This document shows positions 1 to 42,652 of a stretch of DNA of 64,000 bases, in pieces. Every line of letters begins with the position of its first letter. Within the stretch, counting starts at the first letter, position 1. This DNA is from a virus, in IMG/VR virus record IMGVR_UViG_3300003177_000010, positions 32,001 through 96,000 of that record; one strand, written 5' to 3'. The notes under the pieces are model-generated. The model ran no database searches. It worked only from the letters and a program-made list of their open reading frames with translations, and was not told the DNA's origin. Position numbers and translations under genes: made by a program.

Positions 1-162
1 TTTATGGGAGAGATTTTTCTGACCAAGACGTTCCGCCTTTTGAATTTCTTTACCAAGAAATGCCATATTATCTTCAAGCTTTTTATATTCCATTTTGTTG
101 ATTTTAGTTTTCAACTCAGCGAAATAATCCTTTGGCTCTGTAATATTATCATCTTCTATCAT
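1..162 (-). CDS. Hypothetical protein, truncated by window edge (MIEDDNITEPKDYFAELK...)
   Basis: ATG at 162-160 preceded by an AGGAGAG SD; frame open to the window edge. Confidence 0.6.
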   Translation of the reverse strand, partial: MIEDDNITEPKDYFAELKTKINKMEYKKLEDNMAFLGKEIQKAERLGQKNLSHK

Positions 163-203
163 GTTATCTCTCCTGTTAACTATAGAATAATAATTATAAT
201 AAA

Positions 204-530
204 GTAGACCCGTTTGGTAATACGGTGGAGTCTATACCGCAAAAAGGATTAGGCAACTAGTGCATAATCTTTAGGTGCTATGTTATCGTTTGCATTTACG
301 AGTTTTGAGCCGATGTGGTGTGCTCATCCAGTAATCTCCACTTTATCCCCAATGTCATTCGATCCTATTTCGACCCCATTATAAGTATATCAGTTTCAGG
401 GTTCGAACCCTCTTACGGCCTAAATAAACTGTTATAATCACCAATGGCCACTGTACACTCAGTGTCAATATACTTATGGTGGAGTCGCTGGGTACTGCCC
501 CCAGGTCATGTCCATTTTTGTATTGTTTCA
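204..530 (-). ncRNA. ssrA: Circularly permuted (two-piece) tmRNA; outer ends approximate
   Basis: Acceptor piece GACCTGGGGGCAGTACCCAGCGACTCCACCA (507-477) lies upstream of the coding piece starting GGGGTCGAAATAGGATCG (377). Stem GGGGTCG/CGACTCC has G3:U70. Tag frame 293-249 reads ANDNIAPKDYALVA*. Confidence 0.93.
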
Positions 531-776
531 TCAATTACTAGGTGTCTTTAAGGCGCATCCCATTCCTATTAATTTCGTCTTTATACTAAACCGGAGAACC
601 GGCCTCAGAATAACTAACTCCGAATCTTCACCCTATGAAGGTGATGTAATTTCACATCTCTAACAATGTCAGTCATTAGATTAGTAGGTGGCACTAGTTA
701 GATAGTATAGCTACCTACTAATTAAGTAAGAACAAGTGCAAAGGCACCTTCGTGGGCTAAGCCTAATAATTCTTAC

Positions 777-1250
777 TTAAAAATCTTCATAGTACAATAT
801 AGGTTTATTAAAAGCATCCATATATTGCTTCATAACATCAGATAAATCTTCATCTTCAGTAGCTACTGGCGCTACTGGCTCTTCTGTACAAGCTGTAGGA
901 ATACCTCCTACAGAATATACTTCGTGTATACCTGTTTGATATTCTCCGTCACCTAATGATTTAGTAACACGGCGATAAGACCAAGTAGGCTCATGATGCT
1001 TTACAGTACCTTTACTAATGGTAAATAAAGTTCTACCTTCGTTATTTAAAATTACATAGCCGCCTGTTTTATTATAATGAATTACTCCATCAATATTACA
1101 AGTATTAGCATCAGTACTGGTTATGCCTACTACTTCATTATTAAGTAAAGCACCGAAAGTACATGTAACACTTCGATATTTCTCCTGTATAGTAATAGTG
1201 CAGTCAGTATAATTTACTACTTCTATACATTTACCTAATAGACTTCTCAT
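777..1250 (-). CDS. Hypothetical protein
   Basis: 157-aa ORF, overlaps the stop of the upstream ORF. Confidence 0.6.
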   Translation of the reverse strand: MRSLLGKCIEVVNYTDCTITIQEKYRSVTCTFGALLNNEVVGITSTDANTCNIDGVIHYNKTGGYVILNNEGRTLFTISKGTVKHHEPTWSYRRVTKSLGDGEYQTGIHEVYSVGGIPTACTEEPVAPVATEDEDLSDVMKQYMDAFNKPILYYEDF

Positions 1251-1540
1251 TTTGTTTTCCTGTATTTAGGTTCAATTTTTTCGTAAGTTTTGGGAAAAAA
1301 GCGTGTATAAGACTCTTTTGTAGTTACTTGTAAAAGACCTTGCTCATCGCATAATGTACATGGTTCTTTATAGGTCTCTGTTTGAAAATCATGATAATTA
1401 ATTACCTTTTCTTTTTCAATAAAACCTATACCGCCACAGTTATTACACAACTTATCCTCTACAGTAGTACGTATATATACAGATATATCACCATATAGAC
1501 CTATAATATATTCGTCTGCTGGTAGCTCTTTTACAACCAT
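1247..1540 (-). CDS. Small protein with DnaJ-type zinc-finger motifs
   Basis: CNNCGGIG and CTLCDEQG. Confidence 0.6.
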   Translation of the reverse strand: MVVKELPADEYIIGLYGDISVYIRTTVEDKLCNNCGGIGFIEKEKVINYHDFQTETYKEPCTLCDEQGLLQVTTKESYTRFFPKTYEKIEPKYRKTK

Positions 1541-1616
1541 TATATTCCTTTCTTAAGAGTAATATAGATATTATTCCATTATTGGCACTCTATTTTATTT
1601 TGTTCTACGCACTAAT

Positions 1617-1692
1617 TGGTTGCGGGAGTAGGACTCGAACCTACGACCTCTTGGTTATGAGCCAAGCTAGCTGCCGCTGCTAACATCCCGCA
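1617..1692 (-). tRNA. tRNA-Met(CAT), initiator-like
   Basis: TGCGGGA/TCCCGCA-A-CCA; anticodon arm CTTGG-CTCATAA-CCAAG; T-loop TTCGAGT. Confidence 0.9.
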
Positions 1693-1710
1693 TTAATTTC
1701 TTTATACTCC

Positions 1711-1756
1711 AATGTAATACTAAAATAAGCGTTAGGCAATTTTAAACTTCGTTTAA
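1711..1756 (-). promoter_or_regulatory. Sigma70-like promoter with upstream TTAAACGAAGTTTAA box
   Basis: TTGCCT-17 nt-TACATT directly upstream of tRNA-Met; box at 1742-1756. Confidence 0.65.
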
Positions 1757-1869
1757 TAAGTACTTCAGCTATAAATAAGCCCTACTACAAAGTCATTTTA
1801 GTGACAGCTCACGTCATCCATATATAGCACCTGCAGACACTATGTACATTTTGTAGTAGGACTTAACTT

Positions 1870-1954
1870 TGGTGGAAGAGTGTCGAGTCGAACGACACGC
1901 TATTACACTCCGGTTTTACAGACCTTCTGCGGATACCCTCCGCTGAACTCTTCC
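1870..1954 (-). tRNA. tRNA-Tyr(GTA), atypical D-arm and anticodon stem
   Basis: GGAAGAG/CTCTTCC-A-CCA; loop CTGTAAA; long variable region; T-arm GTGTCG-TTCGACT-CGACAC. Confidence 0.8.
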
Positions 1955-2205
1955 ATTATTTCTTATAGGATAAAGGACGTTACTTCCTTTTGACTCTCCT
2001 TTACGCTATTCAACGAAGTTGAATAATAACACGTCTATAAGCCTGCCACGGAGATCTCTTATAGTTGGCGGTCACTTAACTCTAAGTAAGTAATCCTATA
2101 AAAATAAGCAGTTATCACTCTACTCGTAAATACTACTAAAAAATAATAAATCTTGTAGTAACTGCTCCGATATACTGTAGATTTTTTTGATCGGTTTATG
2201 ACTGT

Positions 2206-2403
2206 CTACGAACCGGAAGTCATTTTTAGTATATCGTTTAATTGTTCTTTACTATGTATAGCTGCTTGAATTGCTATATCAAAATCTTTAGCATTTTTAG
2301 TATTACATAAGCAATAAAAAACTACGTTTTTATGTAACCCGCTGGAAATAGCATTTCCTAAGGCAGAAGCCATAATGTCATAATCAGAAATATCTTTATA
2401 CAT
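2206..2403 (-). CDS. Hypothetical protein
   Basis: ORF coupled to 2396-2671. Confidence 0.5.
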   Translation of the reverse strand: MYKDISDYDIMASALGNAISSGLHKNVVFYCLCNTKNAKDFDIAIQAAIHSKEQLNDILKMTSGS

Positions 2404-2671
2404 ATTGATACTTAATAGTGCTTAGGACTAATATACGTAGAATTATTTGCTGTAATTCTAAAGGAAAGTCAGCTGGTTTACCCTCTAAATAATTAATAAT
2501 CCTTGTTACAGACTTCTCATACCTTAATAATTCTTTTCTCTTTTTTCTATCTTCACATTTCTGAGAGCTACTCGCAAAATACTTTCTTTGCTCTTTGAAA
2601 TACGCAATATCTGTGTAGCTATAGCTACTAGCTAAATCCATTCTTAGTACTTTAGGTATATTATAGCGCAT
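2396..2671 (-). CDS. Hypothetical protein
   Basis: 91-aa ORF in a run of coupled ORFs. Confidence 0.5.
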   Translation of the reverse strand: MRYNIPKVLRMDLASSYSYTDIAYFKEQRKYFASSSQKCEDRKKRKELLRYEKSVTRIINYLEGKPADFPLELQQIILRILVLSTIKYQYV

Positions 2672-2832
2672 TATTTAATAATCTCTGCTGCGATACATAC
2701 ACCTCTAACTTGTGTTGGCTCTAACTGTGTGAGAGCTGCTTGACACGCTTCAAAGCTGTCTAGTTTCACTGTAGTTATTCCGTTATGGGATATAAATAAC
2801 ACCAGAATATAAGCACCTGCAGTATTAATCAT
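2671..2832 (-). CDS. Small hypothetical protein with hydrophobic N-terminus (MINTAGAYILVLFISHNG...)
   Basis: Translated by eye; TAATG coupling to the next ORF. Confidence 0.45.
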   Translation of the reverse strand: MINTAGAYILVLFISHNGITTVKLDSFEACQAALTQLEPTQVRGVCIAAEIIK

Positions 2833-2947
2833 TATGTTTCTTCTAAAAAATTAAATGCCTGAGAACCTCTTCATCTCTCACATTGTTCTGTAATTAAATA
2901 GCTATCAGGTAAGCACTATAAACCACTAAATTTATACTTGTATTATG

Positions 2948-3023
2948 TGGCGAAACTGAAGGGGATTGAACCCTCGACCTCCTACGTGACAGGCAGGCGC
3001 TCTAACCACTGAGCTACAGTTCC
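2948..3023 (-). tRNA. tRNA-Asp(GTC)
   Basis: Canonical cloverleaf, loop CTGTCAC, G73-CCA. Confidence 0.95.
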
Positions 3024-3114
3024 AAAAAATTGCTACAGCAGATGTTAATTAGGGCCACCTTACGAATTTGAACCACGAAACATTCCACTCATTTTGCTCT
3101 ACTCGATAATTAGT

Positions 3115-3192
3115 TGGTCCTGCCGACGAGATTCGAACTCGCATTGGTCTCATTGAAAGTGAGGGTTCCTAGTCCAATTAGAAGACGGCAGG
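3115..3192 (-). tRNA. tRNA-Glu(TTC)
   Basis: CCTGCCG/CGGCAGG-A-CCA, loop CTTTCAA. Confidence 0.9.
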
Positions 3193-3650
3193 ATATACTT
3201 ATGCTAGCTAGACACATATTTAACTAGTAATTTCTTACTGCTACAGGCATTAGGTAGTTGACACGGAGTGTCACGGCGCAACATTTAAGGGTATCCATAT
3301 ACACAAACAGAAGTATTATCGAGAGTGAGAATTGAGCCTAATATCTCTGTACTGTTATTAGGCCAATCCGCACAACGCATTAATTCATAGGCTATTACTT
3401 ATAAAAGCTGCTGTATACAAATTTAAAGCATTGCTGCTACCTAATTTTTACCTTTAAACTATTACTCTCCAATAATAGTGCTAACGTACTTAGTTAAAGT
3501 AGTAATTAGGCGCTGTTATTCCTTATACAGTAGGATTGAGTATTCTTTATCTTTACAGCTTATATCGGTTCAGGGGATACTATCCTAATAGCTACGTATA
3601 ACTAAAAGCATAAAGAAATGAGTATCTTCATTTAATTACGACCTGAATGT

Positions 3651-3727
<77 letters not shown>

Positions 3728-4005
3728 AATGAGTTAGGTTCTACTGCGAGACAGCGACTTAGCCAAACCTACGCGTTTGGTTCCATGAATTCGTATAGCT
3801 ACTATAATTTCTAGAGTTAGTAGCTATTTGAGGTATTGAATAGTTAATCCTGTAGTGTATACCGCACACTTTTATATTTAATTATTAAGGTTCAATAAAC
3901 ATAATAAACAAACCTACGATCACTCCCGCAATAGAGATTATATGATATAGTTCACATAACAAAACTATGTACCGTATTGAGTAACTATCTCAATTTAGTA
4001 TATTT

Positions 4006-4082
4006 TGGTAGTCCCACCTGGACTCGAACCAGGACTCAAAGCGTTATGAGCGCCCTACTTTAACCGATTAAGCTATGGGACC
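4006..4082 (-). tRNA. tRNA(CAT), probably Ile2 (lysidine, reads AUA)
   Basis: GGTCCCA acceptor with C4:G69 and C5:G68 TilS determinants; loop CTCATAA; tilS nearby. Confidence 0.85.
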
Positions 4083-4407
4083 AAAGAATAGGCTAGTAGT
4101 AATGAATATTCCCTACTAAGTTTCCTGCGGTCGGAGATTTGTATAATTTAGACCGCAACCATTAATTTGGAATAGCATGAGATTGATTAATTCTCTTATA
4201 CAGGAACGCTATTAATGCCTAGATAAGTATGTATGGAACACCTAACTTCTCCCTCTGTATACAATGCTCTACAGTTAGCAAATTTATTATCTCAGTTTAT
4301 TCTGCGTCTGGTTCCTACGAGTTAATCATTCTCGCCTCCCAAATCCCTCTTTATAACCCATTATAATATAAAAATAGGCTATAAACAAGAATAAACTTCG
4401 TTTAAAA

Positions 4408-4489
4408 TGGTAGAAGGCATAACCGACCCTATAAGGTTATCCGGTTTTCGTAGAGTTAGTCATACATCACTGAAATGACTTGCCTTCTA
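4408..4489 (-). ncRNA. CCA-terminated tRNA-like RNA without a canonical T-loop
   Basis: TAGAAGGCA/TGCCTTCTA closing stem followed by CCA; internal hairpins AGTCAT/ATGACT and ATAACC/GGTTAT; promoter at 4531-4559. Confidence 0.45.
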
Positions 4490-4530
4490 TTAAAAAATTT
4501 ATTTTGTTAAATAACTTTTCTTTATAATCC

Positions 4531-4830
4531 AATATAACGCAAAAATAAGCGTTAAGCAAGTTTAAATTTCGTTCAAAATATGATCTGTACCAGATTAAAT
4601 TGAACTTTATTAGCGAGAGTAAGATTCGATACTTACATTCTGAGTAGTCTCAGGCTTAACTTAGGGGATCTCGCTAATAACTATCGAAAGTAAGAATCGA
4701 GCTTACATTGCCTATAACAATTCATTCATCTGATTTCGATATAACTAATATAACATTTAAAAAAGCGTTTAGCAATTTTAAACTTCGTTTAAAATATGAA
4801 CTGTACCAGTTTAAATTAAACTTCGTTTAA
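4531..4830 (-). repeat. Imperfect ~76-bp direct repeat of a promoter cassette (4531-4607 and 4748-4823)
   Basis: Both copies carry TTGCT(T/A)-17-TATATT, an AAACGAAGTTT-like box and a CTG-GTA-CAG palindrome. Confidence 0.8.
4607..4741 (-). ncRNA. Two tandem mini tRNA-like RNAs (4607-4680, 4682-4741)
   Basis: 12-bp and 8-bp terminal stems, each with a GTAAG-(TCGA loop)-CTTAC T-arm next to the 3' strand. Confidence 0.45.
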
Positions 4831-5409
4831 AATCTTCTTTCTAACAACTTTATGTAATCCAGGATTTACTAGTAAGGCTCTAGGAAGAATTTCATGTCTA
4901 ATAAAATTACGCATATACTTAGTATCTTGATTAGATTTATCTTCTACCCAATTTACGTCGCGTTTATTGCACCAACGAATAAACTCTTCTTTTTTATTAA
5001 GTCTAAAAGGTCTAATAACATTCCTATTAGCATAAGGAATGATATTCCCTTTTCCGTGTAGGCTGCTAAAAAGCCATTGCTCTACACAATCATCTAAATG
5101 GTGTCCAGTAATTACTGGAGTATCAAAACTATGAAAAATAGAATATCTCTCATTTCTCCAATGCTCCTCTTGGCTTACTCCGATAGGAACTGTAGTATTG
5201 ATGCTAAAGACGTGTAAAGCAAGGTCGTTATTTTCAGCGTAAGTGGTGACAAACGTTTCTGCAATAGAACTTGTTTCGGTCCCATGATTTATAAATACTA
5301 AATTAACAGTATGATTATTCTTAAGAAAATCTACAATAGCTACACTATCTACACCGCCGCTAAATGCGACAGTTACTTCTCTTGGTAATTTCCCTTGAAT
5401 AGCAATCAT
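4816..5409 (-). CDS. tilS: tRNA(Ile)-lysidine synthetase, catalytic domain only
   Basis: SGGVDS PP-loop, TGHHLDD, IRP, EDKSN..Y.RN.IRH motifs. Confidence 0.9.
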   Translation of the reverse strand: MIAIQGKLPREVTVAFSGGVDSVAIVDFLKNNHTVNLVFINHGTETSSIAETFVTTYAENNDLALHVFSINTTVPIGVSQEEHWRNERYSIFHSFDTPVITGHHLDDCVEQWLFSSLHGKGNIIPYANRNVIRPFRLNKKEEFIRWCNKRDVNWVEDKSNQDTKYMRNFIRHEILPRALLVNPGLHKVVRKKILNEV

Positions 5410-5467
5410 TGTTTCTTCCTCTCTATAATTAAATATACATTATAAAAAAGAATTAAGCAACTATATT

Positions 5468-6049
5468 TTAAAAAGCACAGGCATATAAAAGATCTAAAGA
5501 TTCTTTTTCTTTTTGTACTGTTTCTATAGACTTAATGGGTATATTAAACTCATTATAACCAAGTTTAGCTACATCTATATCAAAAAATTTTAAGGCTTTT
5601 ACATAATCATTATATACCATCCCATTTACTAGGTCTACCTCAATGTGCTTAATATTATAGTTAGTATCTAATAAAGCACAAAGAGGTAAGTCATCAATTA
5701 TTAAAAATTTATCATCTTCTTCGGCATTATCCTCTATCCACCACAGTATTTCATGTGATCTTTTTGAGGATTTACTTTTAGGTGTTAATGCTACACGCGC
5801 ATAATCAAAACGTAGTCCACATTTATATAGTAAATCTTTTAGTTTTTTCTCTTCTAAAAACCAAGACCAGTTAGTAGAAAGTACAATTTTAGCATCTGCA
5901 TAATCAGCAATTAGATTATGTAAACGAACTGCAAAAGGGTCAAAAGTAGGTAAACCTTTTTTAGTTTTATGGAATTTATAGTTTTCTTGTAAAAAATTCA
6001 ATTTAGCAGGTAACAGAGGCCCGTCAATATCTACAAATATATAATTCAT
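5468..6049 (-). CDS. HAD-domain protein of the 'Swiss Army Knife' RNA-repair type
   Basis: FVDIDGPL, IVLSTNW, R..EI..W, IIDD motifs. Confidence 0.75.
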   Translation of the reverse strand: MNYIFVDIDGPLLPAKLNFLQENYKFHKTKKGLPTFDPFAVRLHNLIADYADAKIVLSTNWSWFLEEKKLKDLLYKCGLRFDYARVALTPKSKSSKRSHEILWWIEDNAEEDDKFLIIDDLPLCALLDTNYNIKHIEVDLVNGMVYNDYVKALKFFDIDVAKLGYNEFNIPIKSIETVQKEKESLDLLYACAF

Positions 6050-6050
6050 T

Positions 6051-6506
6051 TTAATTCCTCAAAAAAGTTAAAGCTTCAAGATAGTTATTATAAGACAGAC
6101 CGTCTATTAAGTCTGCTTTTATATTTTTAATGTTACTTTGTGGGAAATTCAGTAGTAAATCATCAATTACTAGAATTTTGTCTTCTGAGGTACAGTTAAC
6201 ATCTATCCACTGTTGTATTTCCTTAACTCTATTACCTACTTTATTAGTAACAGAGCTACTAGCGTAAGTAAAATTAAAGCCGCAATTATATAGTATATTT
6301 TTTATCTCATATTCAGAAAAGTAATTAGTCCAATTTGTTGCTAATATTATCTTAGCTTTTTATGCTAGTTTATTATAAGCAAAAACTGCAAAAGGGTCAA
6401 ATGTAGGTAAACCTTTTTTAGTCTTGCGATACTTATAATTGTTACCTAGCCTACTAAATTTAACAGGCAATAACGGGCCATCAATATCTACAAATACATA
6501 GTTCAT
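6051..6506 (-). pseudogene. Tandem paralog of the HAD gene with a single in-frame TAA at codon 49
   Basis: MNYVFVDIDGPLLP...KTKKGLPTFDPFAV...LA*KAKIILATNW...ILVIDDL; stop at 6362-6360, frame otherwise intact. Confidence 0.85.
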
Positions 6507-6796
6507 CTTAAGCTTTTATAAAATTTTGAAGTTTCTTCATAAGCGCTTTCACATTCTGTGCAAGGCTCTCCGTTTATTTCCCCATACCCACCATTACAAG
6601 TATTATTACCACATTTCCAACATATATGCATATAACGGTCACAATGTTTACAAAAGGTTAATTTATGCTTCTTATCTTTTGGTGCTATATGGTTACTAGT
6701 ATTGTAAGAAAAATCTAGAGTAGATATATCATAATCCCTAACTAACCTATAATAAATGCTCGGGACAGTGCTTTTTCCAATGTTATATTTCTGCAT
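6503..6796 (-). CDS. Cys-rich zinc-finger hypothetical protein
   Basis: CKHC, CWKC, CNGG, CTEC. Confidence 0.6.
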   Translation of the reverse strand: MQKYNIGKSTVPSIYYRLVRDYDISTLDFSYNTSNHIAPKDKKHKLTFCKHCDRYMHICWKCGNNTCNGGYGEINGEPCTECESAYEETSKFYKSLR

Positions 6797-6940
6797 ATAC
6801 TATCTCTACAACTTTTTCGTAGTCGTTATAATCTGGCTTATCTAAGTGAAATTCTGGTATATAATTACTCATGTCTGTTCCCCAGTCTATTTTAGGGTAG
6901 CAAAGGTAAGCTTTTTTTTAACATAGTTAAATATCCTTAT

Positions 6941-7015
6941 TGGTGCTCCAGTCAGGAATCAAACCTGCTTCTCCGACTTACAAGATCGGGCATCATTCTT
7001 AAATGTTTCAAGAGC
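6941..7015 (-). tRNA. tRNA-Thr(TGT)
   Basis: CCGAT-CTTGTAA-GTCGG; A-CCA end; T-loop TTTGATT. Confidence 0.85.
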
Positions 7016-7019
7016 GTTG

Positions 7020-7436
7020 TTAGGTATATAGCGCTACAGCATATTCTATTTTATTGAAGGTGTTAAGTTTAGCTAAAGTATCTTCTATAAACCATTTATC
7101 TGCTATTTCGTCAAAAAATACTGCATTAATTTTACCTTTTGGTATTGTATAGCCTCTTTTTTCCCTACCTACCATTACTACTTTATCGTGTAAAATAGGC
7201 GTAAAGTTTTTATTATACTTTGAGTATATAATAGGATATTTCTCAGTACAAGCTAAGGCGTTAATTAGGTAACTTTTTCCTACTTGTCTAGGTGTTTTCA
7301 TTATTAAAGTTTTATACTCTAATAAATAGCTATAACGTGATAGATATTCAGGGTTATCACGTAATTTACTATTTTTCATTTCCTCTATTAAAGCAAACAT
7401 ATATACTTGAAATTTATTATCCATTAAGTACCTCAT
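7020..7436 (-). CDS. Small P-loop NTPase resembling a terminase ATPase subdomain
   Basis: TPRQVGKS Walker A, VFFDE Walker B; start moved to 7436 because the longer ORF overlaps tRNA-Gln. Confidence 0.6.
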   Translation of the reverse strand: MRYLMDNKFQVYMFALIEEMKNSKLRDNPEYLSRYSYLLEYKTLIMKTPRQVGKSYLINALACTEKYPIIYSKYNKNFTPILHDKVVMVGREKRGYTIPKGKINAVFFDEIADKWFIEDTLAKLNTFNKIEYAVALYT

Positions 7437-7438
7437 GC

Positions 7439-7513
7439 TGGTTGGAGAGGCAGGATTCGAACCTACGATCTTCTGAATCAAAGTCAGACGTCCTACCACT
7501 AGACCACTCTCCA
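7439..7513 (-). tRNA. tRNA-Gln(TTG)
   Basis: TGGAGAG/CTCTCCA-A-CCA, loop CTTTGAT. Confidence 0.93.
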
Positions 7514-7821
7514 AAAATTATTGGTAAGGGTACCATTCCACCACACCCTCAATAATTAATTGTTATTACTACCGAATAGAGTAGTCTGTTTAAATTTCTT
7601 CAAACCTACTTTATTAATTGTTTTTAGAAAAGCTTTATATAGTGCTTGTTGCATAATTATATTCCTATAAATAAAAATTGCTATGATTTATTAGATACAT
7701 AGCCTTAGTAACTTACAAACAGCAACCACGCTGTAAAATTACTAATTTGACCGGAGGCATAACTTTTAGCACGAAAGCACTGGTAATACTTTCTATAGTC
7801 AGTGGGCTTTACCGGAAGACC

Positions 7822-7903
7822 TGGCATAAGCGCGAGGAATCGAACCCCTTGCCAATACGTTTGGAAGGTAGCACCTATCCAGTAGATATTAGGCTGCGCT
7901 TAT
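7822..7903 (-). tRNA. tRNA-Gly(TCC)-like, atypical
   Basis: ATAAGCG/CGCTTAT-G-CCA, CTTCCAA loop in a bulged stem, T-loop TTCGATT. Confidence 0.6.
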
Positions 7904-7908
7904 ATAAT

Positions 7909-7983
7909 TGGTGCTTATGGGTAGAATCGAACTACCTACTCGGGGGCCTTCAACTCCCAGCTCTACCAATGAGCTACATAAGC
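7909..7983 (-). tRNA. tRNA-Phe(GAA)
   Basis: Cloverleaf, loop TTGAAGG, A-CCA. Confidence 0.9.
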
Positions 7984-8095
7984 AAAATAACTACAACTGA
8001 TTACAGACTTTTACTGCTTTCTACATACTAACCAGACAGCAGATAGTATAAGTTTTCTAAATAAACAAAAGGTACTAGTTCTTTTGTTTATTTCT

Positions 8096-8170
8096 TGGCT
8101 CCCTAGAAAGGATTCGAACCTTTGATATACTAATTAACAATCAGTTGCCTTACCACTTGGCTACTAGGGA
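8096..8170 (-). tRNA. tRNA-Asn(GTT)
   Basis: TCCCTAG/CTAGGGA-G-CCA, loop TTGTTAA. Confidence 0.93.
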
Positions 8171-8221
8171 ATAATTTTATTGCCGAATTATTTGCACTAC
8201 AAGTTAGAGCAATACCTCTGT

Positions 8222-8310
8222 TTTTTAGCAATAGGATTTGCACCTATAAGTCCTGTCACAGACAACCGGATTTTACTCCAGTCACGTATACTAGTTCCGT
8301 CATACTAAAA
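8222..8310 (-). pseudogene. Degenerate tRNA-Leu-like gene
   Basis: Leu-type D region ATGACGGAACTAGTATACG, long variable arm, 6-nt anticodon loop GTAAAA, no CCA. Confidence 0.55.
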
Positions 8311-8359
8311 AATTCATTGGGTGCCTCAGCTTTACGTACGACACACCTACAACAGTTAC

Positions 8360-8435
8360 TGGCATCGGTGCAGGGATTCGAACCCTGGACTCATGGTTTT
8401 GGAGACCACTGCTCTGACCACTGAGCTACACCGAT
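8360..8435 (-). tRNA. tRNA-Trp(CCA)
   Basis: Canonical, loop CTCCAAA, G-CCA. Confidence 0.95.
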
Positions 8436-8439
8436 AAAT

Positions 8440-8515
8440 TGGTCAGAGTGGTGAGACTCGAACTCACGATCTCCGGAATCCAAGTCCGACGACTTACCAA
8501 CTAGCCTACACTCTG
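8440..8515 (-). tRNA. tRNA-Pro(TGG)
   Basis: CAGAGTG/CACTCTG-A-CCA, loop CTTGGAT. Confidence 0.93.
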
Positions 8516-8566
8516 CTATCAGCCGGAAATTCTTTTTACATGCAGCCGGATCTGCATATTATTTCT

Positions 8567-8643
8567 GTACTCTCGATAGAAATCAAACCTACGGTCTTCA
8601 CCTTATAAGAACAATGAGATGATACCTCGCTACAAAATAGTAC
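8567..8643 (-). pseudogene. Degenerate tRNA remnant related to the neighbouring tRNA-Arg(ACG)
   Basis: gtactctcgatag.aatc.aaccta shared with 8730-8754. Confidence 0.4.
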
Positions 8644-8727
8644 CCTTGCTCCTTACCGTGGTGTACCGACTCTTTGGTGAGCACTCAGTAGCAATCTTTC
8701 GAAGGCGGGCATTTCTACTGATAATTT

Positions 8728-8800
8728 TGGTACTCTCGATAGGAATCGAACCTATACGTCAGCTTTCGTAGAGCCAAGTCCATTATCCATCGGCGAGAGT
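8728..8800 (-). tRNA. tRNA-Arg(ACG), reduced D-arm
   Basis: ACTCTCG/CGAGAGT-A-CCA, loop CTACGAA. Confidence 0.85.
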
Positions 8801-8806
8801 ATAAAT

Positions 8807-8880
8807 TGGAGGTATAGATCAGATTTGAACTGATGTAACTGAGTTTGCAATCCAGCGCGTAGCCTCTCCGCCACTATACC
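8807..8880 (-). tRNA. tRNA-Cys(GCA)
   Basis: GGTATAG/CTATACC-T-CCA (U73), GCA anticodon. Confidence 0.92.
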
Positions 8881-8993
8881 ATTAATAGATTGGTTAGCCG
8901 CTTCCTAACCACAGGCCGGTACTTGATCCTTATGATCTGGCCCCGACTTGGCGCTGCACGGAACTAAACAACTATGTTGTTAGTCAAAAAAAA

Positions 8994-9076
8994 TGGAGCG
9001 GGCGACGAGAATCGAACTCGCCATGGAATTAACCGCTAGCTTGGAAGGCTAGTTCTACACCTTGTAGATCACCCGC
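8994..9076 (-). tRNA. tRNA-Gly(TCC) with 6-bp D-stem and long variable region
   Basis: GCGGGTG/CGCCCGC-T-CCA; CTAGC-CTTCCAA-GCTAG. Confidence 0.88.
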
Positions 9077-9184
9077 AAAAAGTCGATTTTGAAACAGAAC
9101 TATCGTAAACCGCATTTGTATACATTGTAAGCAGTGCATCATCACTGTAGGAACTACATCCCGCAACCTCTCCTGTATACACAT

Positions 9185-9215
9185 AAAAAAACCCTCACTA
9201 ATTTCTTAGGAGGGT
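9185..9215 (-). terminator. Intrinsic terminator (candidate attenuator) upstream of the tRNA array
   Basis: ACCCTCCTAA-GAAA-TTAGTGAGGGT followed by a T run. Confidence 0.85.
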
Positions 9216-9244
9216 GTAGACTAGTTAAAATAAGTATATAATAC

Positions 9245-9319
9245 TTATCCGCCATACCCTTCATAAGCCATAGGAAAATCCCATGCACATATATTTTCTT
9301 GTATATTAAATAGTCTCAT
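9245..9319 (-). CDS. 24-aa leader peptide MRLFNIQENICAWDFPMAYEGYGG
   Basis: AAGAGAG SD-like sequence before ATG; ends 30 nt before the terminator; last codons are complementary to the terminator 5' arm. Confidence 0.7.
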   Translation of the reverse strand: MRLFNIQENICAWDFPMAYEGYGG

Positions 9320-9366
9320 TTTGTATTCTCTCTTTTAATCAGTTTACCTGATTTTCTTTATAATTA

Positions 9367-9395
9367 AATATAGCACAAAATTTAGCAATAGTCAA
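9367..9395 (-). promoter_or_regulatory. Sigma70-like promoter of the leader/tRNA operon
   Basis: TTGACT-17 nt-TATATT with an extended -10 TG. Confidence 0.8.
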
Positions 9396-9440
9396 CAACT
9401 TTTTTAATTTTTTATGTAAGGTGCTGAAGTGTTTCTTATA

Positions 9441-9878
9441 CTACAGCGAATTAAAAAATCTCTCTAAAACTATATTAGATAAATCCTTATATTCTTTATT
9501 TAGCTTTTTAAAGTCTCTGATTAGCACAGCATTACTTACTTTATTAACATCTTCATCTAAAAAGTTAATGTAATAAGTTAAGTCGTCTTTTAGCTTAGGA
9601 TAATATACATTTTGTAGCTTTACGTCTTTAGTCCACCCTAGAAATATCTCAGACTCGCTATCAATATGGTCACTATCAAACTGGTCTACAAGCTGTTCAA
9701 GGCTATCAGTAGCATAGGCATCTGTAACAGTTTCACCTAAATGGTATTGAGAAAACTCTTCTGGAACCTCTCCAACGGTAACATAATCTTTATACGGATT
9801 AGGGTCTGTATCTCCATCTTCCATTTTTACTACATAACGATGGCGAAATGATTGAATTGACGTAATTACTGCGTACAT
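9441..9878 (-). CDS. Hypothetical protein
   Basis: 145-aa ORF with AAGGGA SD. Confidence 0.65.
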   Translation of the reverse strand: MYAVITSIQSFRHRYVVKMEDGDTDPNPYKDYVTVGEVPEEFSQYHLGETVTDAYATDSLEQLVDQFDSDHIDSESEIFLGWTKDVKLQNVYYPKLKDDLTYYINFLDEDVNKVSNAVLIRDFKKLNKEYKDLSNIVLERFFNSL

Positions 9879-9954
9879 TTTATATTCCCTTTATTGATGA
9901 TTATTTTTAACATATAATTTTATCTTTTAGCAAATATAAAATGAAATTTTTTAG

Positions 9955-10044
9955 TGGCGGAAGCAGTGAGATTCGAACTCAATACTACTACAAGTACCTT
10001 TAGGTTAGCAACCCAAGACAGAAACCTTTCTGCTTCTTACTTCC
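9955..10044 (-). tRNA. tRNA-Ser(GCT) with tRNA-Sec-like D-arm
   Basis: GGAAGTA/TGCTTCC, G73-CCA, D-arm GCAGAA-AGGT-TTCTGT, loop TTGCTAA, long variable arm, 4-bp T-stem. Confidence 0.85.
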
Positions 10045-10045
10045 A

Positions 10046-10906
10046 TTACTCTAGTGCATTGTTTTTCGTTTTAGATACTGCGTCCATAACACTGTAATTA
10101 AACACGACTACTAAGATAAGCACTTCTTTAACTTCTGCAATACTAAACCCATCAGTATTAACTACTATTTCTTCAATATCTATAAGTAAATTATCTACTA
10201 TAGCAGATACATATGCACGTCGTGCATCAGCGCTTGGCATACCAATTTTCATTACTACATCAAATCTACTAGGTCTATTAAGAAGTCTAGCAGGTAGCCT
10301 TTCTGGGTAATTAGTAGTAGCTAAAAATAATACTCCGTCTACGTCAGAACTACCATCTAGTAAGTGAGTCATATCTTCGTCACCATGCCTAGCAATAATA
10401 CCATCTATGTCTTCGAATACTACTACAATTTTACGTTCTGGCTCAAGAGTTTTTATAATTTCAATGGAGTCTTCAGCGCTGTCAGCGCTATTAGCAAGGA
10501 TCATAACAGCATCCTCTTTTTCTAGCATACCAGCTAGTCTATATATAGTAGCCGACTTACCACTACCTGGAGGTCCATATAGTAAAATGCCGCGTTTATA
10601 GACAAAATTTAGCTTAGCGTAATCTTTTCTCTTTGTCCAGAAATCTTTTATATGGCTTAGAACAGTGGAGGAGGAATCATCAGGTAGTTTTACAAGACCG
10701 TCAACAGACATAGATAGCCTCTGAAGAAAAGGCTCCACACCCCAAGGAGCGCGGTATTTATATATACCTGCTGGTATCTTACCTTTAGAATAACCACCAA
10801 CTCTCCAAGTCTGCGCTTGAGAATCAGTAGCCCATACAGGGTCTTTTATCTTTAGCGGTTTTTTATATTTGAATGGCTGTACATTTTTAACAACTATATT
10901 TGACAT
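10046..10906 (-). CDS. AAA+ ATPase
   Basis: GPPGSGKS, VFEDID, ATTN, RPSRFD. Confidence 0.9.
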   Translation of the reverse strand: MSNIVVKNVQPFKYKKPLKIKDPVWATDSQAQTWRVGGYSKGKIPAGIYKYRAPWGVEPFLQRLSMSVDGLVKLPDDSSSTVLSHIKDFWTKRKDYAKLNFVYKRGILLYGPPGSGKSATIYRLAGMLEKEDAVMILANSADSAEDSIEIIKTLEPERKIVVVFEDIDGIIARHGDEDMTHLLDGSSDVDGVLFLATTNYPERLPARLLNRPSRFDVVMKIGMPSADARRAYVSAIVDNLLIDIEEIVVNTDGFSIAEVKEVLILVVVFNYSVMDAVSKTKNNALE

Positions 10907-10972
10907 TTTTTAATCCTTATGTTAGCTTATTAATAGTATATAATATAACATAATAATAGTCAAATAATAAAA

Positions 10973-11326
10973 TTAAAATCCGCTATATGGATATGTAATC
11001 CAAGACTTAATATTATAGTAGGATACATCTTTACCGTACTTATTAACCATAGTGTGTATGCGTTTAAGTAAGTATTTATCTGCTAAAGGACTATTGAGGG
11101 CTTTACAATTCTGCTCTACAGTCTTATACTCTTTATTACTTATTATGGCTCTAGCTAAAAAAGTAGCTCTATTTTCCCTACGAACAGTAATTTTTCTATG
11201 GTTAGCTAAATTATTTAACATGCTAACGTCTTTATTATTACTTTGTTTGATCTTTAACTCTTCAAAGCGTATAAGTTTAGCCTCTATACCTAAGTGCTTT
11301 GACTTTATTTTAAGTTCTATACTCAT
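10973..11326 (-). CDS. Basic hypothetical protein
   Basis: 117-aa ORF on the coding strand. Confidence 0.65.
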   Translation of the reverse strand: MSIELKIKSKHLGIEAKLIRFEELKIKQSNNKDVSMLNNLANHRKITVRRENRATFLARAIISNKEYKTVEQNCKALNSPLADKYLLKRIHTMVNKYGKDVSYYNIKSWITYPYSGF

Positions 11327-11626
11327 TATATCATCTTTATATTATTATACTTATAGCTATACAGTAATTTCAATCCATATATCTGAAGGATTAACTATTA
11401 CGTTATATTACCTGTGTGCAAGGTTCTACCTCTGGCCAACATCTTACCTGACTTATCCTTTAAAGACGCTATTCCGCCTTTCTATAATTATTTATAACAT
11501 TAAAATTAACCATTAGGCAAATGTTATTTTGATTTTTTAAGAGTTTACCCGTTATTAAATAGTTTTAACTCTAATACTACATACACTATAGTTATATATA
11601 GCATTAAAATTAGCCGTTAGGCAATA

Positions 11627-12454
11627 TTAAACTTCGTTTAATGGCCAGTAAGGCTGTTCAATATTGAATGTTCTATATATTTTACTACAATCTAGCCTAG
11701 AGTTTTTAGGTCTTTTTATAGAATCGTTACTGCCCTTAGTACTAATTCGATTAATTTTACAAGTATAATTATTACTTTTTACTATGTATTCTGCAAAGTC
11801 AGCCCAACTAACTGCGGGTACTCCTGAATAATTATACACACCAGATACAGTACTATTTCGAAGTAGCTTTTTAGCAATAGTAGGAATTATACTGGCTATA
11901 CTTGACGCAGATGTAGGCCCTCCTATTTGATCGTCTACTACACTTATACTACTCTGATTTGTAGCAAGGTTTTTTATAGTATTTACAAAATTTTTACCTT
12001 TATCAGAAAATACCCAAGAAGTCCTAATTATAGCATAAGTACCCCCAACCCTAGATATACCTATATCAGCTAACTCTTTAGTTATACCATATGAGTTTAT
12101 AGGGTGAGTTCTATTTTTCTCTTTATATGCTTTTTTCTTTTTACCATTATATACATAGTCAGTAGAAATGTGGATAAAAACTTTATTATTGTCTTTTGCT
12201 GCCTGGGCCATAACAATAGGTGTTATACTGTTTACTATGTATGCTTCTTTCATATTATCTGGGCAGTTCTTAACACCTGTATAAGCAGCTAAATTAACAA
12301 TTACATCTGCATCAGACTTTTTTATTATATCAGTACAGGCATCAGTATTTAATAAATTAGCAGTAGATCTATTTATAAATATTGCGTTATCTACTACATC
12401 CTTAAATGCAGTAGCTATCTGTCCTGTGCTACCAAAAACTAAATATTTTATCAT
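11627..12454 (-). CDS. rmlD: dTDP-4-dehydrorhamnose reductase
   Basis: GSTGQIA, AAYT.V, HISTDYVY, YGITK, DQIGGPT, RPKNSRLD. Confidence 0.93.
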   Translation of the reverse strand: MIKYLVFGSTGQIATAFKDVVDNAIFINRSTANLLNTDACTDIIKKSDADVIVNLAAYTGVKNCPDNMKEAYIVNSITPIVMAQAAKDNNKVFIHISTDYVYNGKKKKAYKEKNRTHPINSYGITKELADIGISRVGGTYAIIRTSWVFSDKGKNFVNTIKNLATNQSSISVVDDQIGGPTSASSIASIIPTIAKKLLRNSTVSGVYNYSGVPAVSWADFAEYIVKSNNYTCKINRISTKGSNDSIKRPKNSRLDCSKIYRTFNIEQPYWPLNEV

Positions 12455-28384: not shown

Positions 28385-29529
28385 TGTTAATTGAAATATT
28401 AGGAAAATTTTTTGATAATCACTCTCTGAGTATTATAAATAGAAACTTAGCAATAGGGCTACATAACGCAGGAGTTGCTGTACAAATTATAGCTATTGAT
28501 TCTTATGACCACGAATTTAAAGTAGACAAAGAATCAGTAAAAATATTACAAAAGTTACGTAAGTCTACCGATAAAGTACCAGATATACAAGTTAGACATA
28601 CTTACCCACCAATATGGCAGTGGCCAGAAAATAAAAAAACTAAAATAGTATTTATTCAGCCATGGGAGTTCCCTAAAGTACCTTTTGAATGGCAGTATAA
28701 ATTTGAGTCATTTGCAGATGCTTTAATAGTACCAAGTTCTACTAATGCTGAAGTATTTATAAAAGGGGGCTTACGCAGTGATAAAGTTTTTGTAGTACCT
28801 AACGGGTATGACGACAAAATTTTTAAAAGTGGTAGATCAACAAGTTCTTATGTTGAGGAATCTAAATTTAATTTTGTATATGTAGGAAATTCACAGTGGA
28901 GAAAAGGGTTAGATATACTGCTGAATGCGTGGCATAAATGTTTTAAGTCTTATGATAATGCAAGACTAATTATAAAAGATAACCCAAGGGTATATGGAGA
29001 TAGTAATATAATTAATGAAATCATCCGTATGCAATATAAAACTTCTTGTGCTCCTATTACTTATATAGATAGTGATTTATCTGTAGAGGATATGGCTGAT
29101 TTATATAGTAGCTGTTCTGTTATTGTGCATCCTTACAGGGCTGAAGGCTTCGGTATGCATATACAAGAAGCAGTAGCTTCTGGGTGTTTTCCTATTATTC
29201 CTAATAAAGGGCCTACTAATGACTTTATACCAGATGACTGTAGTATAAAAATAGATACTACTGCTACACCTATTAATATTGCAGATGCTAATATATTTGC
29301 TATGAAGCCAGGAGACTCAAGTACCTTAATGGGCACTCATACATTTATTGATGAGCCTTCTGAGCAATCTCTAGAAAAAGCACTTATGTATTTATATCAC
29401 AGCCATGAAAGAGATAAGATAGTTAGTAAAGTAAAGGGTATATCTACACTTAATACATGGGACAAAGTTATAAAGCAATACATTGATGTGTTTAACAAAA
29501 TAAGTAACAACCAGGTAAGGAGAACATAA
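28384..29529 (+). CDS. GT4 (GT-B) glycosyltransferase
   Basis: RKGLDILL, PYRAEGFGMHIQEAVASG. Confidence 0.9.
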   Translation: MLIEILGKFFDNHSLSIINRNLAIGLHNAGVAVQIIAIDSYDHEFKVDKESVKILQKLRKSTDKVPDIQVRHTYPPIWQWPENKKTKIVFIQPWEFPKVPFEWQYKFESFADALIVPSSTNAEVFIKGGLRSDKVFVVPNGYDDKIFKSGRSTSSYVEESKFNFVYVGNSQWRKGLDILLNAWHKCFKSYDNARLIIKDNPRVYGDSNIINEIIRMQYKTSCAPITYIDSDLSVEDMADLYSSCSVIVHPYRAEGFGMHIQEAVASGCFPIIPNKGPTNDFIPDDCSIKIDTTATPINIADANIFAMKPGDSSTLMGTHTFIDEPSEQSLEKALMYLYHSHERDKIVSKVKGISTLNTWDKVIKQYIDVFNKISNNQVRRT

Positions 29530-38682: not shown

Positions 38683-39163
38683 AGGAATAACTTATCCATT
38701 CTTTTCTATAAATACTAAGCCTTATAGTATTACGTATGATATTAATACTATAAGACTACAAAAGTACGAAGATACACATACTGAAACAGTAGATGATAAA
38801 ACATTATCTGGTAAATATATTAGTAGACTTTTACAACTGAATAATAGAATTACTTTTGATAATACTAGTAACTCCTTACAGGAGTTACTGTTTAGCAAGG
38901 CTAAATGGGGGATGGATAGTAATGCTATACCATTTGACCTAAGTAATAAAGAAAACTACCCAGCAAAGATACATAAAATAAAAAGGGTAATCGGTAACCT
39001 AATATGGCTACGGAATATATCTTACCCATTTACTCTAGCTATGCCTACCGACGTAGACATTGATAGAGAATTATATGCAGTAACTATACTTATACACAAT
39101 GAATGGTACATTAAAGAGTTTGCATATTATCCAACACTATCTAGAAAATGCATAACAGTATGA
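38624..39163 (+). CDS. Conserved hypothetical protein between pol and D10
   Basis: ORF in T5-like synteny; start uncertain. Confidence 0.6.
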   Translation: MKLGIAGVTYKTKQIISKYKGITYPFFSINTKPYSITYDINTIRLQKYEDTHTETVDDKTLSGKYISRLLQLNNRITFDNTSNSLQELLFSKAKWGMDSNAIPFDLSNKENYPAKIHKIKRVIGNLIWLRNISYPFTLAMPTDVDIDRELYAVTILIHNEWYIKEFAYYPTLSRKCITV

Positions 39164-41995: not shown

Positions 41996-42652
41996 ATGGT
42001 AGCTTGGGATAAAGCAAAAGGAAAACAACCGGGTGGTGGTCAAAAACGTGACATAGTTAGGTTACCAATGAAAATGGGGGACAATAAAATTAGACTAGTA
42101 GGTGATTTGTTACCTAGATATGTATACTGGGTAATTACAAAAGAGGGTAGAAAAATACCGGTTGAATGTTTAAAATTTGATAGAGAAACAGAAACTTTTA
42201 ATAATAATGCAGAAGATCCTTTTGACGAAATTGATGAAGCAGTATTTTCTGATAAACCACAATTTGCCTATGTGTGTAACGCAATAGATAGGTCTGATGG
42301 GCAAGTTAAACTATATGATTTACGTAGCACAGTATATGGGCAAATAGTAGACTATGCAAAAGACCCTGAGTATGGGCCCCCTACTGACGAAGTAAATGGT
42401 TATAACTTTAATGTTAAAAAAGAATCTACCGGACCCTTACCTCAAAATGTAAAATATACAGTAGTGGCAGGTAGAGGTAATGCACCTCTTACAGAAGAAG
42501 AAAAAGCTATGGAATTGTATGAGTTAGATAATATTATGAAAAGACCTACATATGATGAACAAAAAGCATGGCTACTTAAAAATACTACGTATTTTATGGC
42601 GGAAGTTACTGACGAATTTAAAGCTACAGAGGAAGTTACCGATTTAGCATGA
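41996..42652 (+). CDS. T5 D11-like ssDNA-binding protein
   Basis: PRYVYW, acidic C-terminus, synteny. Confidence 0.8.
   Translation: MVAWDKAKGKQPGGGQKRDIVRLPMKMGDNKIRLVGDLLPRYVYWVITKEGRKIPVECLKFDRETETFNNNAEDPFDEIDEAVFSDKPQFAYVCNAIDRSDGQVKLYDLRSTVYGQIVDYAKDPEYGPPTDEVNGYNFNVKKESTGPLPQNVKYTVVAGRGNAPLTEEEKAMELYELDNIMKRPTYDEQKAWLLKNTTYFMAEVTDEFKATEEVTDLA

Follow-up and report, generated by a model that had tools for sequence, protein, structure and literature searches.

A candidate leader-ORF transcription attenuator ahead of the first tRNA block of a phage, with counterparts in diverged phages

The window analyzed here is a stretch of 64,000 nucleotides, bases 32001-96000 of the 112,794-bp IMG/VR record IMGVR_UViG_3300003177_000010 (33% GC; complete by CheckV), from a phage with a T5-like replication module comprising an NAD ligase, a PolA-type polymerase, a DnaB-like helicase, and SbcC. 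On its minus strand, 20 tRNA genes and a permuted, alphaproteobacterial-type transfer-messenger RNA (tmRNA) are spread across 13 kb. The extreme 5' head of this region carries a promoter, a 24-codon open reading frame (ORF), and an intrinsic terminator, which together probably constitute a leader-ORF transcription attenuator gating the first tRNA block of the phage. The alternative folds of the leader are present in the window, and the layout, the spacing, and the pairing between the ORF end and the terminator are conserved in relatives; from these sequences we infer the translation of the ORF, the control of the switch by the ribosome, and the sensing of codons. The chances appear about even that multivalent leader-peptide attenuators regulate tRNA genes in phages of several unrelated lineages, among which the window unit would be a rather weak member.

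Promoter, leader ORF, and alternative folds in the window

The elements of the candidate attenuator all lie on the minus strand. L004, named in the first line, is the locus of the closest relative.

9414-9400, minus strand: A-rich tract resembling an UP element, upstream of the -35 hexamer and kept in the homologous L004 promoter
9395-9367, minus strand: sigma70-type promoter TTGACT-17-TATATT, with the -35 at 9395-9390 and the -10 at 9372-9367; 10/12 in a consensus scan
9353-9337, minus strand: 5'-proximal leader hairpin AAUCAG-GUAAA-CUGAUU (predicted fold)
9334-9327, minus strand: Shine-Dalgarno (SD)-like purine tract AAGAGAGA, 7 nt 5' of the ATG
9319-9245, minus strand: leader ORF, ATG at 9319, 24 codons plus TAA (9247-9245), peptide MRLFNIQENICAWDFPMAYEGYGG
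9267-9251, minus strand: antiterminator 5' strand CUUAUGAAGGGUAUGGC, in ORF codons 18-23, a near-copy of the terminator 3' arm
9250-9228, minus strand: antiterminator apex (AU) hairpin GGAUAAGUAU-UAU-AUACUUAUUU, containing the stop codon
9221-9205, minus strand: antiterminator 3' strand GUC..ACCC.UC.UAAG, overlapping the terminator 5' arm
9215-9185, minus strand: intrinsic terminator ACCCTCCTAA-GAAA-TTAGTGAGGG(T) plus T7 (9191-9185), a 10-bp stem with one bulge
9184-9077, minus strand: spacer of 108 nt between the terminator and the first tRNA, tRNA-Gly at 9076

A preliminary description of this DNA had named the promoter, an SD sequence with the 24-codon ORF, a hairpin between the ORF end and the terminator, the terminator with its GAAA loop and T7, and a first tRNA about 110 nt further on, and every one of these was present at the place it gave. 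The promoter has an extended -10, with TG at 9375-9374 ahead of TATATT. It belongs to a promoter family repeated in the genome, in which the -10 is followed by nnATTATAAAGAAA and a second -10-like element, ATTATAA, is conserved just 3' of the -10. Because the -10/start region TATATTnnATTATAAAGAAA recurs elsewhere on the minus strand of the genome, ahead of genes and tRNAs, the promoter is not a chance match. The leader ATG lies 47 nt 3' of the -10, and the SD pairs with the anti-SD at -4.9 kcal/mol, a strength typical of the genes of this phage (about their median) and equalled by 9% of random ATGs. At about the equivalent place to the 5'-proximal hairpin, the L004 leader shows by eye a different one, CCGC-ACAC-GCGG.

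The stop codon of the leader ORF is separated from the terminator stem by 29 nt. Among dinucleotide shuffles of the window locus, 2.2% contained an ORF that starts with ATG, has 20 or more codons, and stops 25-33 nt ahead of the stem. The terminator hairpin has a ΔG of -12.2/-12.3 kcal/mol, and a simple terminator scan was blind to it owing to the one-base bulge. It stands between the ORF and the tRNAs, and the spacer that follows (9184-9077) contained neither a promoter-like site of at least 9/12 nor the phage promoter motif, and nothing in it matched Rfam. Searching window positions 1-12000 against Rfam (E<=1) returned only tRNAs, the tmRNA, and chance hits, none of them in 9400-9077; no T-box or other Rfam family thus matches the leader.

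The minimum free energy structures of transcripts ending at 9201 or 9195 pair CUUA.GA.GGGU..GGC (9267-9251) with GUC...ACCC.UC.UAAG (9221-9205) around the AU hairpin at 9248-9230. When the growing transcript was folded, the terminator prevailed once its 3' arm had been transcribed. Mutually exclusive folds, as claimed in the preliminary description, thus exist, with a pairing longer than the one it gave, but for the window alone they are weak and within chance.

The mechanism suggested by these features would proceed as follows. The strong sigma70-type promoter (9395-9367) would yield a transcript bearing the 24-codon ORF, with the terminator 29 nt past the stop. The last ORF codons (9267-9251) would pair with the terminator 5' arm (9221-9205) around the stop-codon hairpin, excluding the terminator. 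A ribosome at the stop codon would mask the 5' strand and the apex, allowing the terminator to form and releasing a leader RNA of ~170-180 nt. If the ribosome lagged or stalled in codons 2-16, the strand would remain free, the antiterminator would form, and transcription would read through to the Gly, Cys, Arg, Pro, Trp, Asn, and Phe tRNAs.

The same layout and pairing in other phages

Close DNA relatives gave no match among GenBank phages, and in IMG/VR no match was obtained for the 145-aa ORF, for the neighboring AAA ATPase (window 10906-10046) as a single query, or for the exact terminator sequence. Relatives were found with a profile of this ATPase in IMG/VR and metagenomes. Homologues of 54-63% identity exist on long Logan, ENA, or NCBI contigs; in profile scans of IMG/VR, JGI metagenomes, and GTDB genomes, only L004 (identical to L084) exceeded 50% identity, and a promoter-motif scan of IMG/VR gave the record of L004 as the only true relative. 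Xanthomonas phage phiXF1, the best cultured ATPase match, was set aside, as its locus is neither syntenic nor close to any tRNA.

In three diverged phages with ATPase identities of 34-56%, a promoter, a short ATG ORF, a terminator, and tRNAs follow the orthologous ATPase. The layout and the alternative pairing, which the preliminary description had suggested seeking in related phages, were found in four units of these three phages, listed below. The record of L004 (G001) contributes two of them, the L004 unit (G001b) and a second one (G001a). The energy gain is the number of kcal/mol won by letting the terminator 5' arm pair upstream, with dinucleotide shuffles as the null, and for the relatives it was calculated in the context of the last 14 codons; the paired entries are the antiterminator strands.

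L004 (G001; unit G001b): ATPase 56% identical; ORF of 21 codons, MTTSCMFKNYENRIKTPWSAM; gap 31 nt; terminator ΔG -16.4; GGAG.GCUAUG / UAUAGC.CUCC, gain -9.8 vs shuffles -1.6±1.7, p<=0.003
L007 (G002): ATPase 37% identical; promoter TTGACA-17-TACAAT; ORF of 47 codons; gap 27 nt; terminator ΔG -14.6; tRNA array from 7794; GCCUUCUCAGUA / UACUGAGAAGGC, gain -12.1 vs shuffles -4.2±2.3, p<=0.003
L077 (G003): ATPase 34% identical; promoter TTGACA-16-TATACT; ORF of 45 codons; gap 29 nt; terminator ΔG -11.9; tRNA array from 7477; CCGCUUUC / GAAAGCGG, gain -10.6 vs shuffles -2.0±1.7, p<=0.003
G001a (second unit in G001): ORF of 36 codons; gap 27 nt; terminator at 42463; GGCUUUUGGUA / UACCAAAAGCC, gain -11.6 vs shuffles -3.7±2.4, p 0.003

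The L004 promoter is homologous to the window promoter, including the upstream A tract, and outside the promoter the leaders are not alignable. The distances from stop to stem are 29 nt in the window and 31, 27, 29, and 27 nt in the four other units, while ordinary gene ends in the same regions have gaps of 2-49 nt. An ORF of this geometry (ATG start, 20 or more codons, end 25-33 nt short of the stem) occurred in 2.2-3.0% of shuffles per locus; in the four records, such an ORF is present at 5/9 terminators preceding tRNA blocks. The peptides of the window and of the four relatives' units show no significant likeness to one another by Smith-Waterman scores against shuffles (p 0.09-0.85), and homology among the leader peptides was rejected on this basis. 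Since the peptides are unlike, selection appears to act on the open frame and its end point and not on the product.

In all four relatives' units, the antiterminator 5' strand lies in the last ORF codons. The topology is common to them (ORF end, a small hairpin at or around the stop codon, terminator 5' arm), and the sequences are all different. Of this family, the window helix is the weakest member, and each of the others reaches significance by itself. As a control, 16 terminator-like hairpins of the window genome gave p values of 0.01-1.0, with clear gene ends at 0.55-1.0 and the candidate at 0.13; on the window data alone, the core of the attenuator claim is indistinguishable from chance. 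It is the relatives, with their common layout and spacing, their unlike peptides, and their significant ORF-end pairing (p<=0.003), that support the reading of the element as a ribosome-mediated attenuator, as first proposed in the preliminary description.

In L004, the T run of the terminator ends 3 nt before tRNA-Cys, leaving no room for a promoter, so these tRNAs need read-through. The tRNAs past such terminators can come only from passing transcripts, and the terminators are therefore attenuators in at least the broad sense.

A similar unit was found in the Caulobacter phage CcrColossus (JX100810.1, about 68148-68305). Its 31-codon ORF MMTYRNNVRQIRVRQFNLAGRSHVGDGGSEG (beginning MMTYRNNVRQIRVRQFN), which is annotated in the record neither as a gene nor as a regulator, ends 30 nt before the stem of a terminator annotated at 68276, ahead of a block of Val, Ile, Ile, Val, Gln, Gln, Asn, Arg, and Arg tRNAs. 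Codons 17-20 hold CUUGGCGGGCC, a copy of the terminator 3' arm, and the energy gain in the last-14-codon context is -23.9 vs -7.3±3.0. CcrColossus thus resembles the window in having a short ORF, a gap of about 30 nt, a terminator, a copy of the 3' arm within the ORF, and codons of the tRNAs that follow; it differs in its unrelated lineage, a GC content of ~60%, much stronger hairpins, and a much clearer correspondence between leader codons and tRNAs. The tRNAs are the only RNA elements reported in the genome paper (PMC3556154).

A chance juxtaposition, in which the terminator of the upstream ATPase operon would happen to adjoin an accidental promoter, ORF, and pairing in AT-rich sequence, is very improbable. 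An ATG ORF of ~20 codons is not rare in AT-rich DNA, and in the window, shuffled leaders roughly match the native one in pairing with the terminator arm. Chance does not, however, account for the recurrence of the arrangement and the spacing in three diverged relatives and in CcrColossus, with significant antiterminators, or for the homology of the promoter between the window and L004.

The element might instead be an independent small gene or small RNA (sRNA), with the 24-aa peptide or the ~170-180-nt leader RNA as its product, a leaky terminator, and tRNAs made by constitutive read-through or upstream transcription. We regard this as unlikely. Short ORFs that are annotated as genes, each set behind promoters, are scattered among the tRNA genes of T5, and the window phage has a T5-like replication module; the window antiterminator, moreover, is not significant alone. 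A released attenuator RNA, rnTrpL, reportedly acts as an sRNA elsewhere, which makes both a role for the product and a leaky terminator conceivable. Yet the peptides are unconserved, while the frame, the length class, and the stop-to-terminator spacing are conserved. All relatives show pairing between the 3' end of the ORF and the terminator arm, which a plain gene followed by a terminator would not need, and the T5 tRNA region, lacking internal terminators, represents another arrangement.

Somewhat less likely again is a factor-dependent switch to which the ORF is irrelevant, with a protein, a processive antiterminator, a small molecule, or uncharged tRNA timing the tRNA genes. In the PR'-6S RNA-tR' region of lambda, an efficient terminator lies within ~200 nt of a strong promoter and has to be overcome for expression of the late genes; the Q protein acts on RNA polymerase, and the late leader involves neither a translated ORF nor an alternative RNA fold. 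The window, with a strong promoter and then a strong terminator within ~180 nt, resembles this leader in promoter-terminator spacing and is unlike it in having an ORF and an alternative fold. The conserved second -10-like element ATTATAA of the promoter family is also compatible with a factor, and the conserved antiterminator/terminator pair would fit a trans-acting effector equally well. Such a switch leaves unexplained why sequences that cannot be aligned retain an open ATG frame with an SD, ending at a constant 27-31 nt from the stem. In addition, no Rfam family, T-box or other, was found for the leader, and the same promoter motif also stands ahead of ordinary genes.

Leader codons and the tRNAs past the terminator

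The first tRNA block occupies 9076-7909 on the minus strand and contains seven tRNAs, between the terminator and the next terminator-like hairpin (7557-7516).

9076-8994, minus strand: tRNA-Gly(UCC)
8880-8807, minus strand: tRNA-Cys
8802-8728, minus strand: tRNA-Arg(ACG)
8515-8440, minus strand: tRNA-Pro
8435-8360, minus strand: tRNA-Trp
8170-8096, minus strand: tRNA-Asn
7983-7909, minus strand: tRNA-Phe

The preliminary description had assigned the element control over the phage tRNA array. Such control would extend at most to the first block of seven, possibly together with tRNA-Gln, and not to the array as a whole: later tRNA blocks have promoters of their own.

A feature absent from that description is a correspondence between the codons of the leader and the tRNAs beyond the terminator, which we refer to as the codon mirror. 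Codons 4-16 of the window leader ORF include Phe, Asn, Cys, Trp, and Pro codons, matching tRNAs past the terminator. For the statistics below, a block was taken as all tRNAs up to the next terminator, and null peptides were drawn from the codon usage of the long ORFs of each phage.

Window leader: codons read by its own block 9/23, expected 5.2, p=0.057; block tRNAs sampled 6/7, expected 3.3, p=0.016
G001b leader: codons 14/20, expected 7.9, p=0.006; block tRNAs 9/10, p=0.004
G001a leader: codons 15/35, expected 9.4, p=0.03; block tRNAs 7/7, p=0.065 (0.026 with strict wobble)

The window leader samples the Gly, Cys, Pro, Trp, Asn, and Phe tRNAs, and it has no Lys or Ser codons. In CcrColossus, residues 5-15 of the leader consist solely of Arg, Asn, Val, Gln, and Ile, and 14/30 codons are read by the block (expected 7.0, p=0.004). 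The Thr and Arg codons of the G001b leader were unexplained at first; Thr(GGU) and Arg(ACG) tRNAs were then found further downstream. In this leader, block codons make up 13/15 of those before the antiterminator strand and 1/5 of those within it, the one being the last. Where the tRNA block is small enough, leaders thus over-sample the tRNAs past the terminator, modestly so in the window.

Pairing leaders with blocks of other units gave a measure of specificity. All four mismatched pairs involving the G001a leader or block were depleted (2/23, 2/20, 6/35, and 9/35). The window leader matched the G001b block at chance level (9/23, p=0.56), and the G001b leader was partly enriched for the window block (6/7 tRNAs, p=0.025); the window and G001b units are orthologous and have several tRNAs in common. 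Neither the mirror nor its specificity is explained by a small gene or sRNA, and the match between leader codons and tRNAs is likewise unexplained by a factor-dependent switch. In a ribosome-controlled attenuator, slow decoding of codons 4-16 would lead to more of the cognate block tRNAs, forming a negative feedback loop.

Counter-evidence, known systems, and neighboring features

Several observations weigh against the attenuator reading. In the window, the energy gain is only -1.2 kcal/mol with the whole leader and -4.3 to -7.1 kcal/mol locally, and is equalled by 13-87% of shuffles; the antiterminator has a p value of 0.13-0.16 locally and 0.8 against the whole leader, and amounts to about -7 kcal/mol compared with -12.3 kcal/mol for the terminator. 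The 5' strand of L007 is 24-36 nt away from the stop codon, on its 5' side, where a terminating ribosome would not cover it. The gain in CcrColossus is not significant if computed against the whole ORF (-6.6, p=0.51). Only L004 is a close relative, and the four ATPase-linked units are probably orthologous and hence do not represent four independent inventions. The mirror in the window is modest (p 0.016-0.057), the block limits and wobble rules were set after the data had been seen, and the Arg(ACG) tRNA is not sampled by the window leader. The three Gly codons of this leader fall within the antiterminator strand; a stall there would favor termination, so base pairing, not sensing, may account for them. 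When all tRNAs of the phage were taken as the set, the leader showed no enrichment (15/23 codons, expected 14.8). With the tRNAs in their loci, L007 showed a weak, non-significant trend (13/14 tRNAs sampled, p=0.07) and L077 no enrichment (p=0.75); the mirror test is uninformative for the full G002 and G003 arrays, because their blocks cover nearly all amino acids.

The enterobacterial trpL, hisL, pheL, thr, and ilvGMEDA leaders resemble the window in having a short ORF with an SD, a terminator, and an antiterminator 5' strand in or next to the ORF end, and in them, too, the leader codons match what is regulated. The closest likeness is to the multivalent thr and ilvGMEDA leaders, in which several amino acids are sensed at once. 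In the window, unlike in these systems, phage tRNA genes and not biosynthetic enzymes would be regulated, and the leader has mixed codons, one or two of each kind, instead of a run of one codon. We found no clear region-1 partner in the window leader that would enforce termination when no ribosome loads. The antiterminator beats the competing leader fold by 1.2 kcal/mol only, and with so small a margin the outcome in the absence of a ribosome is not predictable for the window.

Our search of the open-access literature turned up a single accessory tRNA array whose control is known, the trn operon of Anabaena sp. PCC 7120, which is kept low and induced on impaired translation (PMC8421152, PMC10272220). 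Its repressor TrcR binds direct repeats that cover both the -10 box and the start site (PMC8421152, PMC10272220), a control at the promoter level unlike that proposed for the window, and the words attenuator, leader, and terminator are absent from the 2021 paper (PMC8421152). The tRNA region of T5 (NC_005859) is like that of the window in combining tRNA genes, short ORFs, and several sigma70 promoters on one strand. No intrinsic terminator was found or annotated in it, nor any short ORF ending 25-33 nt before a terminator, and T5 was ruled out as a precedent because its tRNA region has no internal terminators. We found control by a leader ORF described for amino-acid genes only, not for tRNA genes. 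The statement in the preliminary description that no attenuator was known for a phage tRNA array agrees with our search of the open-access literature, which yielded no description of an attenuator for phage tRNA genes, although absence there is no proof.

The role of phage tRNAs is debated, with codon-usage compensation, late-gene expression, and escape from anticodon nucleases all under discussion, and their regulation has been little studied. If the attenuator reading is true, the tRNA supply of the phage would be demand-driven: the phage would measure decoding shortage codon by codon and top up the corresponding tRNAs, whether the shortage arose from codon-usage mismatch, starvation, or tRNA-cleaving defenses. 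A specific link to anticodon-nuclease defense would be speculation. Classical attenuation would be extended from amino-acid supply to the tRNA pool, and the leader would represent a compact natural sensor of codon-specific translation speed. CcrColossus on Caulobacter is a cultured system in which the idea is directly testable. Short ORFs ahead of tRNA blocks would then deserve annotation as regulatory leaders rather than being ignored.

Within the tRNA region of the window, a second terminator-like hairpin (-10.9 kcal/mol plus T5) at 7557-7516 on the minus strand ends 3 nt before tRNA-Gln. The production of tRNA-Gln must likewise depend on read-through. A 32-codon ORF, MQQALYKAFLKT... (region 7516-7654, minus strand), has its stop codon overlapping the 5' arm of this hairpin. 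As a further attenuator unit the pair was rejected, with a gap of -2 and no significant antiterminator (p 0.23). Two possible tRNA remnants were noted on the minus strand, one at 7826-7880, which lies between tRNA-Phe and the 32-codon ORF and has a T-loop reading GGTTCGATTCC, and one at 6944-7015, a weak Rfam tRNA match (22.8 bits) 3' of a 139-aa ORF.

The first tRNA of the block (8994-9076, minus strand) is 83 nt long and combines the Gly anticodon UCC with a long variable arm, and such a class-II shape is uncommon for tRNA-Gly. Visual inspection shows U73 as the discriminator and the pairs G1-C72, C2-G71, and G3-C70, and in Rfam the tRNA scores only as tRNA-Sec-like, at 41.7 bits, under the cut-off. 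The tmRNA (158-569, minus strand) is of the permuted two-piece alphaproteobacterial type (Rfam RF04321, 106.6 bits) and has the tag ANDNIAPKDYALVA; its type hints at an alphaproteobacterial host.

Further copies of the promoter family at 4522-4560, 4351-4390, and 1702-1740 of the window and at genome positions 28638-28680, all on the minus strand, have the longer consensus ttaaacgaagtttaaaCTTGCTTAACGCTTATTTTTGCGTTATATTggATTATAAAG. Their spacer contains an inverted repeat, AACGC...GCGTT, which does not occur in the attenuator promoter and could be an operator for a phage regulator.

The stand-alone AAA ATPase used to find the relatives (PF00004; window 10046-10906, minus strand) lies beside or inside tRNA arrays in the window and in L004, L007, L035, L038, L077, and L094. 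The association is found in many otherwise diverged phages, very large ones included, and suggests that the role of the ATPase is connected with tRNA or translation. The G001 record (L256/L257, G001:C1:29952) contains a UCA-anticodon tRNA, classified as Sec by ARAGORN, and three tRNA-Trp genes, and upstream of the ATPase, L007 and L077 each have a tRNA that reads amber codons (anticodon CUA). These large phages may recode stop codons.

A 790-aa helicase ORF at 39148-41520 on the plus strand has a mid-protein match to a LAGLIDADG homing endonuclease (residues 310-499, phrog_11023), and this segment is probably an intein.

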